A DNA stretch of 64,000 nucleotides from an uncultured Acidimicrobiaceae bacterium. Lineage in GTDB: Bacteria; Actinomycetota; Acidimicrobiia; Spongiisociales; UBA5794. Every line of letters starts with the position of its first letter. Within the stretch, counting starts at the first letter, position 1. The DNA lies in assembly GCA_947259365.1 (NCBI GenBank), contig CAMYMC010000021.1:135816-199815 (forward strand). The letters run 5' to 3'. The position numbers and the translations under genes were made by a program. The notes beneath the pieces are model-generated. The model made no database searches. It saw only the letters and a list, made by a program, of their open reading frames with translations, and was not told the DNA's origin. Below are positions 11,899 through 21,239 of the stretch, piece after piece.

Positions 11899-12387
11899 GT
11901 GCTCACCCCCGGAACCGTGGCACCCGACTTCGACGTCGCCGACCAGTGGGGCGGCCGCGTCCGACTCCGCGACCTTCGCGGCACCTGGGTGGTGCTGTGG
12001 TGGTACCCGAAAGCCGCCACGTCGGGATGAACGGATGAAGGGCAGGGGTTCCGTGACCGAATCCCGGACTTCGACGGGCTCGGCGTGGTGATCCTCGGCA
12101 TCTCCTACGACACCCCCGATGACAACCGCGCCTGGGCTGAGAAGCACCGGTTCCCGTTCCAGCTCCTCTCCGACGAGGATCGCTCCGTGGCCGGGGCCTA
12201 CGGCGCAGTCCGCCACCCCGACGATGCCTCCCCCGGGCGCCCCCGGAGGATCACCTACGTCATCGACCCGGCGGGTGTGATCCGGCTGTCGTATCGCGTG
12301 GCCTCAGCCGACATCGCCGGCCACGCCGACCGGGTGCTCGCCGACGTGGAGGTACGCATCGACGCACCGCGCCGCGGCGGGGTCTGA
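11899..12387 (+). CDS. Bcp/PrxQ-type peroxiredoxin with in-frame TGA at the peroxidatic Cys position (probable selenoprotein)
   Basis: Track ORFs 11458..12030 and 12085..12387 are in the same frame with no other stop between them. Read-through gives VLTPGTVAPDFDVADQWGGRVRLRDLRGTWVVLWWYPKAATSG[TGA]TDEGQGFRDRIPDFDGLGVVILGISYDTPDDNRAWAEKHRFPF. That is the PxxxTxxC motif with TGA (12028-12030) in place of C. The GTG start at 11899 gives a typical ~160-aa length. Confidence 0.7.
12045..12065 (+). promoter_or_regulatory. SECIS-like hairpin downstream of the peroxiredoxin TGA
   Basis: GGGGUUC-CGUGACC-GAAUCCC has a 7-bp stem with one G-U pair. It starts 15 nt after the UGA and has GU in the apical loop. 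Confidence 0.45.
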
Positions 12388-12470
12388 GCGCTTCTTCGAG
12401 CACATTGGCGGCAACCGAGCCGTCGTTCGGGTGGCGCAGCCCGCAACGCAACGACCGGTAGCCTCGGCCA

Positions 12471-14173: not shown

Positions 14174-14965
14174 TCACCCCTGCCCGAACACGACGACCTC
14201 TGTGTTGGAGCAGGCCGACGATCCCAGATCGCAGACGACGTAGGTATATGTCGCATTGCCCGTCGTCCCGATCGCGTCGGTATGCGTGAAGCCGGCGGCG
14301 CTGGCGATCGACGCTCCGTCGCGCAGAATGTCGACCGCCGTGGACCCGGTCCATGTGAGATCGACCGTGTGCTTGCCCTGAACCTTGTAGCCGGTTGCGC
14401 TCAGGGTCATCGTCGGCGGCGGTGTCGTCGTGGTCGTCGTCGTGGTCGTCGTCGTGGTGGGTGGCACGGTCGTGGTCGTGGTGGGTGGCACGGTGGTGGT
14501 CGTGGTCGTGGTGGGTGGCACGGTGGTGGTCGTGGTCGTGGTGGGTGGCACGGTCGTGGTCGTGGTGGTCGTGGTGGTGGTGGTGGTCGTGGTGGTCGTG
14601 GCGATCGTTGTCGTGGTGGTCGTCGTGGCTCCGGGCACGGTTGTCGTCGGTGAGGGTGGCGCCGTCGTCGACGCAGGGAGGGTGGACGACGTCGAAGCGC
14701 CGGGCAGTGTCGTGGTTGCACCCGTTGTGGCCGGGGTCGTCGCCGGGTCGGTCGCGGCCGCCGCTTGCGTTGTCGACGCCGCAGCCGCGTCTGTGGTCGG
14801 CAACGCCTCCCCGACCGGGCCGGCCACGACGGTGCCGTCGGCGAAGTCGGTATCGGGGAGTCCGCTCGTGTCGGGCACCGCGGCGCCGCACGCCGCAGCA
14901 ACGATGGCGAGAGCGGCGAGCGTCAGCCACCCCTGCCTGTTCGCATTGCTCCATCTGCTCAGCAC
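14174..14965 (-). CDS. Thr/Pro-rich secreted lipoprotein with small C-terminal Ig-like domain
   Basis: Lipobox AIVAAAC, then a long poly-Thr tract with VPPTTTTTTT repeats. The C-terminal YKVQGKHTVDLTWTGSTAVDILRDG...YTYVVCDLGSSACSN resembles the C-terminal domains of secreted proteases. GTG start. Confidence 0.7.
   Translation of the reverse strand: MLSRWSNANRQGWLTLAALAIVAAACGAAVPDTSGLPDTDFADGTVVAGPVGEALPTTDAAAASTTQAAAATDPATTPATTGATTTLPGASTSSTLPASTTAPPSPTTTVPGATTTTTTTIATTTTTTTTTTTTTTTTVPPTTTTTTTVPPTTTTTTTVPPTTTTTVPPTTTTTTTTTTTTPPPTMTLSATGYKVQGKHTVDLTWTGSTAVDILRDGASIASAAGFTHTDAIGTTGNATYTYVVCDLGSSACSNTEVVVFGQG
14454..14567. repeat. tandem 24-30 bp repeats encoding the VPPT(n) units
   Basis: The unit GTGGTGGGTGGCACGGT(G/C)GTGGTC(GTGGTC) occurs about 4 times. 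Units 14478-14507 and 14508-14537 are identical. Confidence 0.8.
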
Positions 14966-15911: not shown

Positions 15912-17341
15912 CTACCGATCCGGCTCCGTGCTGCGCGGGACCGCATCCCCCACGCTGCCCCTGCGGCGGAGGATGGAGCTGACCTCGTCGATGTCTCCGG
16001 GAGCCGTTTGCGCCGCCCTGGCGTACATCCAGCCGGTCGGGAGGAAGAAGACCTGGAAGCCTGCGAGTCCGACCGCCCAGTTGAGCGGTGGCGGGAAGGC
16101 CCGCTCGATGCTGCCGGCGAGCGCACCGACGAGTCCGTTGCCCGAGGCCCTGCCGACCCCGTTGGCGAGATTGCCGAGCCCGAACACCGTTCCCCTGTGC
16201 TCGGGGAGGTTGACGTCGGAGATGAGGGCGAACCAGTTGGGTGAGTCGGCGCTCGTGAACGCCAGCGCCAGCAGCGACATGAAGAACGCCGCCGTCACCC
16301 ACCCGTTCGTGACGATGCTGCCGAGCACCTCGGGCACGAGCGTCGCCGTGCTCCCCCCGGGTGTGACCTCGAGGCCCCGCAGCGGGATGAAGAAGAACGC
16401 GAGGAAGAAGGGGATCGCGCCGAGGATGCCGACGGAGGACACGATGGCGCGGCCGGACTTCGTCCGCTGCTGCACCCTGTCCCCGATCCAGCCGGCGAGG
16501 ATCGAGAAGAGCCCGCCGAGCTGGAAGATCGCGCCGAAGAGCCCGCCGACCTTCGTCGCGGTCGCGGTGTCGTAGCCCTCGGCGACGATCTTCTCCTTGT
16601 AGATCCGTAGGCGAACTGGGCGCTGAGGCCCTGGAGGATGAGCCACATGTTCGTCCTGCGGCGAAGCAGGCCGGGGATCTGGCGGTGGTCGATGCGGTAC
16701 TCGTAATCGGCGCCCGCCGCCCGCAGCTCCTCCAGCTCGGGTTCGCGGTACCCCCGCGGCGCCTCGTAGGTGAGCAGGTAGAGGACGGCGAAGACGGCGC
16801 CGAGCGCAGCCATGACGAGGAGCGGGCGGCGGAAGTCCCCGGCCCCGAGCTGGCTGGCGATCAGACCGCCCGCGAGTCCTCCGATGCCCTGGGAGAGGCC
16901 CCAGAAGCTCATCGCGAGACCACGGCGCGCCGGCGATACGAAGTCGCTCACGACCGAGAAGCCCACCGAGGCGATGGAGCCGAGGCCGATCGCCGTCAGG
17001 CTTTGGAACATGAACAGGGCGCCGAAGCTGCCGGCGCGAGAGCTGAGGAAGACTCCGACCGCCCAGATGGCCGTACCGATGAACAGGAGACGCTTGCGGC
17101 TGGAGCGATCGCCCCAGTAGCCCCATGCCACGGCAGTCACCGCGGTGACGAGCAGCACGGTGCCGGTCATGAATCCGATCGCCTGGTCGGAGGTGCCGAG
17201 TGACTCCGCCACCGGCTTGACCATCGACGGGAACAGCGCGAGCGCGCTGTTGTCGAGCGAAGCGAGGACGATGAAGACGACGATGGTGAAGATCACGTGG
17301 CCCCGTGAGCCCCACCACGGCGGCCTCCGCTGTTGCGTCAT
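15912..17341 (-). pseudogene. MFS transporter with an apparent 1-nt frameshift
   Basis: The N-terminal half (MTQQRRPPWW...NMWLILQGLSAQFAYG) is in the 16295..17764 frame. The C-terminal half (IYKEKIVAEGYDTATATKVGGLFG...) is in the 15912..19163 frame. The junction is at about 16603-16607. This could be a sequencing error. Confidence 0.6.
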
Positions 17342-19250: not shown

Positions 19251-19495
19251 GGGCCGTATCCACCGGTGATGGGCAACGTCCGCCCGAACGGGGAAGGAAC
19301 GGCAGGAACGAGCGCCGTGCCGTCGTGACGCCTCACGCTCGACCGCCGTCGGGATCGGACTCGTCGGCTGAATCGCCATCGTCGGCCGAGCCGTCCCCAC
19401 GTCGCCGCCTTCGGCGGCCGGTTGGATTCAGGAAACGCGGGCCCCCGGCCACATCGGGGGCGTGTGAGGTCGGGGGCGTGGGAGGTTGCGCCGTG

Positions 19496-20092
19496 TCAGC
19501 CCGGGTCGCGTTGTCGCCCCGCGGCATCGAGCCAGTCCTCCGGTTCGACGCCGAGCCCGTCGGCGATCCGGTTGATGTAGTTGAAGTAGGCGCAGACCTG
19601 GGTCGCGTCGTGGATGGCACGGTCGTCCCATCCCGCGGCCCGCAACGCGGCGACGTCGCCCTCAGCCATGTCTCCCGGTGCCAGCGAGAGCTTCTCTGTG
19701 TACTCGAGCAGGGCCACCGTCTTCGCATCGAGGCCGGCCGTTCTCCATCCCGTCGCGACCCGGTCGGCGAGCGCCCGGGCGTGGTCGTCGTCGAGGTCGA
19801 GGTCGGCGCCGATCTCCGACCGGAGATCGTGCAGGTGGGCCTGGACTCAGTACTCGCACTCGTTGGCGACGGAGGTGACGACGGCGATGAGCTCGCGCTG
19901 GGAGCGGCTCAACGGTGACTCGCCGAACATGAGCGAGCCGTAGAGCCGCATCGAGTCGCGCATCGCTTCGCCGTTCTGGCTCATGATCGCCACGATGTTC
20001 CAGATGCGTCCGGCGCGCCGCATCGCGGCCTCGTACTCGCGTCGCGTCGCACCGGTCGCGGCGTCCGGCGGGATCTCCTCGATGTACGGCAT
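19496..20092 (-). CDS. AhpD/carboxymuconolactone-decarboxylase-family peroxidase-related protein with CxxU (in-frame TGA; probable selenoprotein)
   Basis: Track ORFs 19847..20092 and 19496..19717 are in the same frame, with 43 open codons between them. Read-through gives ...LSRSQRELIAVVTSVANECEY[TGA]VQAHLHDLR...LLEYTEKLSLAPGDM...CAYFNYINRIADGLGV. This matches the N-x-C-x-Y-C-x-x-x-H motif with TGA (19847-19849) at the second Cys. Confidence 0.7.
19810..19829 (-). promoter_or_regulatory. SECIS-like hairpin downstream of the AhpD-like TGA
   Basis: On the minus strand: C-GAUCUCC-GGUC-GGAGAUC-G, an 8-bp perfect stem with a GGUC tetraloop. It starts 18-19 nt after the UGA. GGUC is also the apical loop I recall for the E. 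coli fdhF SECIS. Confidence 0.5.
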
Positions 20093-20132
20093 CGTCTCGG
20101 GACACTACCGCCCGGCTCTCTAGTCTTGGCCG

Positions 20133-21239
20133 ATGGCCGTCGTCTCCGTTCTCGTGTTCACCGCCGGGCTGTGGTTGGTGGGTTGGACGATCCTCTCCGC
20201 CGTCCGCACCGTCATCTTGCCCCGCAACGCTCAGTCGATCATCACCCGGGCCGTGTTCCGCAGCGTCCGGGTCCCGTTCCGGTGGCTCGCCGGTGAGCGG
20301 CGCACGTTCGAGAGCCGCGACCGGATCCTCGCCCTCTTCGCCCCCGTGGGTCTCGTGGCCCTGCCCGGGGTGTGGCTCACCATCGTCACCGCCGGGTACA
20401 CGCTGATGTTCTTCGCGCTCGGCGGCCGCAGCCTGGGAGAGGCGTTCCATCTCAGCGGCTCATCGGTCACGACGCTCGGCTTCGCCCCGGCCACGACGCT
20501 CGTCGAGAGGGCACTGGCCTTCACCGAAGCCGGCTGGGGACTCTTCCTCGTCGCCCTCATGATCACCTACCTCCCCTCCCTCTACTCGGCCTTCGCCCGG
20601 CGCGAGGCCCTCGTCGCCCTCCTCGAGGTTCGCGCCGGGAAGCCCCCCTCGGCGACCGAGTTCATCGAGCGGCACCACCGCATCGGGTGGCTCGACGAGC
20701 TGCGGGAGACGTGGCTCGCCTGGGAGCTGTGGTTCGCCGAAGTGGAGGAGTCGCACTCGAGCTTCCCCGCGCTCGTCTTCTTCCGCTCCCCAGATCCCGG
20801 CCGTCACTGGCTCACCGCCGCGGGAACGGTGCTCGACTCCGCCTCGGTGTTCATGTCGTCGGTGGAGGGCGTCGAGCGGGGTCCGCCCGGCGTCTGCGTG
20901 CGCTCCGGCTACCTCGCGCTGCGCAAGATCGCCGACTTCTTCGGCATCGCCTTCGATCCCGATCCCGCCCCGACCGATCCGATCTCGATCACCCGGGACG
21001 AGTTCGAATCTGCCCTCGATCATCTCGGCGGCGTCGGCGTGCAGCTCACCCCGGATCGGGACCAGGCGTGGCGCGACTTCGCCGGATGGCGGGTCAACTA
21101 CGACACCGTGCTCCTCCAGCTCGCCGAGGTCACACAGGCGCCCTACGCGCCGTGGACGGCCGACCGCTCAGCGGTGAGCCGGGAGCGGCCGAGGATGCGG
21201 CGTTTTGGACGCCGCGCCGGAGCCGGGCGGGAGGGATGA
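20133..21239 (+). CDS. hypothetical polytopic membrane protein with soluble C-terminal domain
   Basis: 368 aa with N-terminal TM helices and a pore-loop-like SGSSVTTLGFAP segment. No family could be assigned with confidence. Confidence 0.65.
   Translation: MAVVSVLVFTAGLWLVGWTILSAVRTVILPRNAQSIITRAVFRSVRVPFRWLAGERRTFESRDRILALFAPVGLVALPGVWLTIVTAGYTLMFFALGGRSLGEAFHLSGSSVTTLGFAPATTLVERALAFTEAGWGLFLVALMITYLPSLYSAFARREALVALLEVRAGKPPSATEFIERHHRIGWLDELRETWLAWELWFAEVEESHSSFPALVFFRSPDPGRHWLTAAGTVLDSASVFMSSVEGVERGPPGVCVRSGYLALRKIADFFGIAFDPDPAPTDPISITRDEFESALDHLGGVGVQLTPDRDQAWRDFAGWRVNYDTVLLQLAEVTQAPYAPWTADRSAVSRERPRMRRFGRRAGAGREG

Follow-up and report, generated by a model that had tools for sequence, protein, structure and literature searches.

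AhpD-like proteins with a CxxU motif were described as a new family of selenoproteins, with 27 sequences, in data from the Sargasso Sea (Zhang, Fomenko & Gladyshev 2005). Under the name "AhpD-like 1" (COG2128), and with 299 sequences, they were later counted among the most abundant selenoprotein families of the Global Ocean Sampling (GOS) data (Zhang & Gladyshev 2008), and a 2026 review lists "AhpD-like protein, TIGR01926, CxxU" as a selenoprotein family (PMC13188914). The gene considered here lies on the minus strand, at 19496..20092 of a 64-kb stretch of DNA from an uncultured Acidimicrobiia-like organism (contig CAMYMC010000021.1; this whole stretch is called the window below). A preliminary description of the window had noted that AhpD-like CxxU proteins are a described prokaryotic selenoprotein family, as the literature just cited bears out, and had proposed that an in-frame TGA of this gene is a genuine selenocysteine (Sec) codon. 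The proposal is supported by the family match, by a TGA column that is conserved in relatives and by a conserved hairpin, and the TGA at 19849-19847 is very probably a genuine Sec codon in an AhpD-like selenoprotein gene. By every available sequence test, the window gene belongs to the already known family. It scores above the TIGR01926 cutoff, has Sec on the second Cys, carries a bacterial Sec insertion sequence (bSECIS) directly after the UGA, and has Cys homologues; nothing substantial sets it apart, the host of the window copy being an uncultured, high-GC and Acidimicrobiia-like organism. Novelty may lie only in a link, seen in relatives, to operons encoding the E2 component of a 2-oxoacid dehydrogenase.

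The coding sequence is complete. It runs on the minus strand from an ATG at 20092-20090 through 81 codons, the UGA(Sec), a further 116 codons and a terminal TGA at 19498-19496, which gives a product of 198 aa, and the starts of homologues align with its N-terminus, MPYIEE. Translation of 20092..19496 yields 199 codons in one frame, and the sole internal stop is the TGA at 19849-19847. The preliminary description had noticed two same-frame open reading frames (ORFs), 19847..20092 and 19496..19717, joined by 43 open codons (129 nt) and interrupted by this TGA only. Translation returns the same layout and the same read-through string, ...VVTSVANECEY-[TGA]-VQAHLHDL..., and the local context at the stop is ...SVANECEY-UGA-VQAHLHDLRSEIG... 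When the gene is compared with that of the nearest relative (L001), the ratio of nonsynonymous to synonymous substitution rates (dN/dS) is 0.06 in the N-terminal half and 0.24 in the C-terminal half. The median identities over 78 relatives are 59% and 53%, respectively. By these measures, both halves are coding and under purifying selection. A reassigned code, in which TGA would stand for Trp or Gly, is ruled out because TGA is the usual stop in the window, where it ends 37 of the 49 ORFs with a high GC content at third codon positions.

For profile and homology searches, the TGA of the read-through product was substituted by Cys. The product matches NCBIfam TIGR01926 ("peroxidase-related enzyme") at 132.3 bits for a cutoff of 81.8, with residues 10-186 aligned to positions 9-177 of the 178 in the model. 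The AhpD core domain TIGR00778 (40.6 bits, cutoff 27.8) and Pfam CMD (45.6 bits, cutoff 23) are also found above their cutoffs. It is a member neither of the mycobacterial AhpD family TIGR00777 (19.3 bits vs a cutoff of 191.95) nor of NF041238 AhpD_rel_CFYUT (55.1 bits vs a cutoff of 175, over model positions 215-341 only). The latter is the "hypothetical protein 1" of the Sargasso Sea study, which has a related C-terminal domain and the C-x-Y-U type of motif but a 357-residue architecture. The solved structures 6K40, 3C1L, 2PFX, 2OYO and 2PRR match residues 10-193 (E 5.5e-26 to 6e-18). Together with PA0269 (2O4D), these proteins are in the same length class as the window protein (~190 aa), but all of them have Cys and none has Sec. 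The alignments to 6K40 (NRCVYC) and 3C1L (NHCYYC) are ungapped across the TGA, with CxYC...H at the aligned position and the second Cys at the TGA column. The 198-aa product also aligns to its Cys homologues (alignment A1) with no gap across the TGA, in agreement with the first assignment of the TGA to the second Cys of a CxxC motif.

The active site can be read from these alignments. The codon at 19847..19849 (minus strand, as are all codons of this gene) would specify Sec82 (U82), in the second-Cys place of C79-E-Y-U82, as indicated by the TGA column in relatives and by the Cys of 6K40 and 3C1L. Its partner Cys79 (19856..19858, read from the sequence) would form a selenenylsulfide with U82, and the corresponding column is Cys in all the sequences of alignment A1 except P0011 and P0016. 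The predicted proton-relay residues are Glu67 (19892..19894), with 11 residues between it and Cys79, and His86 (19835..19837), with 3 residues between it and U82. E67, Y81 and H86 are invariant in alignment A1, and the His86 codon is CAY in 82 of 82 homologues. The resulting pattern, E67-x11-C79-x-Y81-U82-x3-H86, conforms to the relay signature E-x11-C-x-[H/Y]-C-x3-H, and its spacing is identical to that of E36, C48, Y50, C51 and H55, the proton relay of PA0269, and the relay described for Mycobacterium tuberculosis AhpD is spaced alike. The window protein and M. tuberculosis AhpD have in common the core two-helix motif and the relay E..C-x-x-C..H. The window protein would act in the manner of AhpD but is not an orthologue of the mycobacterial protein, as its TIGR00777 score shows; it has Sec for Cys, its motif is in the N-terminal half, and there is no adjacent ahpC. 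The gene most likely encodes an AhpD-like thiol/selenol oxidoreductase (carboxymuconolactone-decarboxylase fold, TIGR01926) with the motif C79-x-x-U82.

A genome scan, made with one genome per species, gave 595 relatives, and the codons were counted in the best 80. The Sec column holds TGA in 79 of these 80 and TGC in the remaining one (L079). By their labels, the genomes belong to Acidimicrobiia (with Actinomarina among them), Chloroflexota, Acidobacteriota, Gemmatimonadota, Latescibacterota, Planctomycetota and others, and at least six phyla are represented. In a neighbour-joining tree, the window protein is placed inside an Acidimicrobiia clade. Its nearest relative, L001 (contig JABAOE010013224.1), is syntenic, has 91% nucleotide identity over the locus and keeps the TGA. 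The same codon is found at the Sec column of L002, an independent Logan assembly from a second sample, and of L006. In public gene calls, the L001 gene is split into 81 aa and 112 aa, and L006 is split in the same way; about half of the best 120 matches from the protein collection are fragments of 108-125 aa that start just 3' of the TGA column.

Downstream of the UGA, at 19810..19829 (minus), is the putative upper stem-loop of a bacterial SECIS, identified by folding, pair counts, covariation and frozen synonymous sites. The hairpin C-GAUCUCC-GGUC-GGAGAUC-G has an 8-bp stem (19829-19822 with 19817-19810) and an apical loop GGUC (19821-19818). It lies within the codons for H-D-L-R-S-E-I-G, and is the sole element of the regional centroid fold. 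The preliminary description was right about this perfect 8-bp GGUC hairpin and its position, but the distance of 18-19 nt that it gave after the UGA has to be corrected: the stem base is 17 nt from the UGA, and the first loop base 25 nt (19846..19822). In the published bSECIS model, the loop has 3-9 nt and the stem 4-16 bp, a G stands in loop positions 1-2, most often with G or U as the next base, 16-37 nt separate the UGA from the apical loop, and the minimum free energy (MFE) is -7.5 kcal/mol or lower (PMC13188914). When the 60 nt 3' of the UGA are compared with this model, the hairpin falls within all four limits, with its 4-nt loop and 8-bp stem, its GG start, its spacing of 25 nt, and an energy of -12.0 kcal/mol for the 20-nt hairpin alone. 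The hairpins of relatives have stems of 6-8 bp and loops of 4-8 nt, and 69 of 82 homologues reach the MFE limit. A G is present in the first two loop bases of all 82 (CG in 70, GG in 11, GC in 1). The window hairpin closes to a GGUC tetraloop, whereas most relatives have a 6-nt CG[G/U]NNN loop. The tetraloop is that of the Escherichia coli fdhF SECIS, as the preliminary description had stated and as the E. coli K-12 sequence confirms, and in both genes the hairpin comes right after the UGA, within the coding sequence. The two elements differ in spacing (18 nt in fdhF, 25 nt in the window), and the upper stem of the window hairpin lacks the bulged U and is unrelated in sequence.

On its two strands, the window contains 37 perfect 8-bp hairpins with a loop of 3-9 nt and a G in loop positions 1-2, and by chance about 0.006 such hairpins are expected at SECIS spacing after any given UGA. 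The folding energy of the 76-nt stretch is ordinary for GC-rich DNA (z = -0.39) and is not used as evidence; the case for the hairpin is therefore made by position and conservation, not by energy. An extended lower stem, present in the 57-nt MFE fold of the window, is absent from the consensus fold of 82 sequences and is not claimed.

Conservation of the hairpin is seen both in its pairing and in its codons. Over 80 distinct sequences, 86.6% of the stem cells are paired; a shift of the 3' partners by 1-3 columns lowers this share to 28-50%. Pair 24-37 occurs as C-G (66 of these sequences), U-A (11) or U-G (3) and is intact in every one; it joins a synonymous Asp third base (column 24) to a Val/Ile first base (column 37; Thr in Actinomarina). 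The stem Leu is encoded by CUC in 80 of 82 homologues, compared with 30% elsewhere in the same genes, and the stem Glu by GAG in all 82, compared with 60%. Just upstream of the stem, two His codons vary freely between CAC and CAU. The loop Arg is encoded by CGG (52) or CGU (30) and never by CGC, although CGC is the most frequent choice for Arg in the rest of these genes (39%). The "G then G or U" loop signature of the bSECIS model results from this restriction. Because the stem is paired with compensatory pairs, its synonymous sites are frozen and the choice of the loop Arg codon is restricted, these 82 homologues indicate that the hairpin is under selection at the RNA level, beyond the peptide that it encodes.

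Some relatives do not have TGA at the Sec column. The Cys forms (L079, with HDYRDEV, as well as P0005, P0011 and P0016) have D-[F/Y]-R in place of D-L-R and have no hairpin, and the TGC-form locus L079 has Thr at the Cys79 column. A true TGG (Trp) is found in P0030 (L003:3001-3582, L004, L005), a relative present on 11 contigs. This form keeps an intact downstream hairpin, GACCUC-CGUGAA-GAGGUC, and looks like a recent Sec-to-Trp change at the catalytic position. P0027 and many marine database entries also show W at the Sec position (one entry shows G); the DNA was looked at for P0001 (L089:86-652) and P0003 (L090:421-996) alone, and in both it is TGA, translated under another code, as is probably the case for most of the W entries. 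A Trp subfamily, of which these many W proteins would be members, is rejected: P0001 and P0003 have TGA, and only P0030 has a real TGG.

A second candidate selenoprotein is encoded in the window at 11899-12390 (plus strand). It is a PrxQ/BCP peroxiredoxin in which a TGA at 12028-12030 takes the place of the peroxidatic Cys codon (YPKAATSG-U-TDEG). The read-through product matches AhpC-TSA from end to end (122 bits), and its Cys homologues have ...TSGCT... at the place of the TGA. A hairpin of 7 bp, GGGGUUC-CGUGACC-GAAUCCC, follows at about 12045-12065, its loop being 21 nt after the UGA, and both the TGA and the loop are kept in two relatives (L092 and L093). Since there are two TGA-at-Cys genes within 8 kb, this uncultured Acidimicrobiia-like organism is probably a selenium user. 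The Actinomarina single-cell and metagenome-assembled genomes in the set carry the TGA form of the AhpD-like gene, and according to a 2026 preprint, each of the 84 complete Actinomarina genomes has selA, selC and selD together with a divergent selB.

Several observations weigh against the reading of the TGA as Sec. The hairpin is inside the conserved peptide DLRxE[VI], and part of its conservation is at the protein level because the codons for D-L and E-[V/I] form the stem. No Rfam SECIS family is found in the window at the gathering score, nor in 19400-20200 at E <= 10. Bacterial SECIS elements are poorly covered in Rfam, where the models are eukaryotic or describe a few lineage-specific bacterial elements. 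ARAGORN detects no tRNA gene in the 64-kb window, which is part of a contig of about 205 kb, and no tRNA-Sec in the window and 60 related loci. There is no tblastn match to E. coli SelA, SelB or SelD in the window, but queries so distant may overlook copies that have diverged; these queries have no match in about 90 other loci either, whose flanks extend for 10 kb only. A Pfam scan of the window ORFs that could not be named by eye shows nothing related to Sec. Since a real TGG form exists in relatives, the Sec position can hold a residue that is not redox-active. Finally, pseudogenes may exist in this assembly, since a transporter gene of the major facilitator superfamily (MFS) is broken in the window. 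This gene (15915-17341, minus) is frameshifted near 16603, where it has a 22-nt deletion compared with the intact 469-aa gene of the syntenic L001; it may be a true pseudogene, or the break may come from an error of assembly.

Among the alternatives, the one that survives best is still improbable. The UGA would be read through without Sec, either by a near-cognate tRNA that inserts Trp or by SelB-dependent insertion of Cys from a Cys-charged, Sec-like tRNA, and the hairpin would serve general read-through. This would fit with the Sec machinery not being found in the window by ARAGORN and tblastn, and with the TGG form (L003-L005) in which the hairpin is kept; recoding of Sec codons to Cys is also described in some bacteria. 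However, the hairpin bears the SelB-type signature, a G[G|U] loop at a spacing of 16-37 nt, and the family is catalogued as a selenoprotein. The W entries P0001 and P0003, when traced to their DNA, proved to be mistranslated TGA codons, and Actinomarina, whose gene is of the TGA form, is reported to have selA, selC and selD. It is less probable again that the TGA is a true stop, whether the gene is a pseudogene with a nonsense mutation or TGC/TGT was miscalled, with an 81-residue fragment or nothing useful as the product. This reading is contradicted by the TGA of a 91%-identical relative in two independent samples and of 79 among the 80 closest genomes, which span several phyla. The frame also stays open past the TGA, under purifying selection (dN/dS 0.24), and is followed by a position-specific hairpin with frozen synonymous sites; these points stand against the frameshifted MFS gene of the same window and the two pieces into which gene callers divide the locus of relatives, both of which would suit a true stop. 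Two small proteins, the first an N-terminal CMD fragment of 81 aa and the second a C-terminal protein with a start of its own, are the least probable of all: a GTG at 19717 does open a 73-aa ORF, but a start 43 codons past the TGA would lose H86 and a conserved helix, no start after the TGA is conserved (the next codon in the window is GTC), and the homologous structures are single-domain and match residues 10-193, on both sides of the TGA.

If the UGA is a Sec codon, a mechanism can be proposed. SelB with Sec-tRNA(Sec) would bind to the hairpin 25 nt downstream of the UGA, and Sec would be inserted in place of termination. In the folded protein, the U82 selenolate, activated by the E67/Y81/H86 relay, would attack an oxidised partner, probably a peroxiredoxin disulfide or sulfenate. 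C79 would resolve the intermediate to a selenenylsulfide, and an upstream reductant would then regenerate the C79/U82 pair. Gene order in a sister clade points to what this reductant might be. In 13 loci (L011, L013-L016, L020, L022, L025-L028, L034 and L036), the Sec-form AhpD-like gene is located 3' of, and on the same strand as, an E1alpha-E1beta-E2 operon for a 2-oxoacid dehydrogenase. The Pfam identities of the three operon genes are E1_dh; Transket_pyr and Transketolase_C; and Biotin_lipoyl, E3_binding and 2-oxoacid_dh. In 10 of the 13 loci, the distance from the E2 stop codon to the AhpD-like start is -1 to +3 nt, an arrangement of translational coupling in this sister clade. In M. tuberculosis, electrons pass from NADH to Lpd, then to DlaT (an E2), AhpD and AhpC. 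The sister-clade relatives resemble this system in that their gene shares an operon with a lipoyl-E2, and in mycobacteria a protein of this kind is the reductant of AhpD. The analogy suggests dihydrolipoyl-E2 as a candidate reductant of the AhpD-like protein. It counts against this reading that the window's own AhpD-like locus has no E2 neighbour, and applying the E2 lead to the window gene is therefore an inference from the relatives. A selenium version of the mycobacterial DlaT-AhpD-AhpC relay, running from dihydrolipoyl E2 through the AhpD-like selenoprotein to a peroxiredoxin, is a tentative and rather unlikely extension of the same analogy. In the literature collection that was searched, no paper connects AhpD-like selenoproteins with 2-oxoacid dehydrogenases.

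Other neighbours recur or stand out around the gene. In 13 loci from Chloroflexota and one from Planctomycetota (L074), an Ada-type regulator/O6-methylguanine methyltransferase (AraC helix-turn-helix and MGMT) lies 0.9-1.6 kb downstream of the AhpD-like gene, on the same strand (L021, L023, L024, L032, L039, L042, L049, L051, L058, L060-L062, L066 and L074). In the window, the AhpD-like gene (minus) and a gene for a 368-aa membrane protein (plus) are divergent, with 40 nt between their start codons (20093-20132), and the other flank is occupied by a convergent AMP-binding ligase. A consensus scan of 20093-20132 detects no sigma-70-type promoter. A TAGTGT hexamer is present 9 nt 5' of the AhpD-like ATG and would fit a very short or absent leader. 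Farther away, 14174-14965 (minus) encodes a Thr/Pro-rich protein with TTTTTTTVPP repeats, and the poly-Val ORF on the plus strand is a spurious product of a tandem repeat at 14427-14628, with a unit of 24-30 nt.

The locus is of practical value for annotation. Standard gene callers cut such a gene into 81 aa and ~112 aa, or give Trp or Gly for the TGA on short contigs, and as a result about half of the closest public entries are fragments or have the wrong catalytic residue. It also provides an example of an RNA signal that shapes a protein: the D-L-R-x-E-[V/I] that follows Sec is held by the hairpin, and Cys forms show the relaxed D-[F/Y]-R. From the link to lipoyl-E2 operons in relatives comes a candidate electron donor for the AhpD-like family that can be tested. 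If the relay from dihydrolipoyl E2 does exist, its peroxiredoxin could be the Sec PrxQ encoded 7.5 kb away, and the two selenoproteins would then form a peroxide-reduction chain tied to central carbon metabolism.

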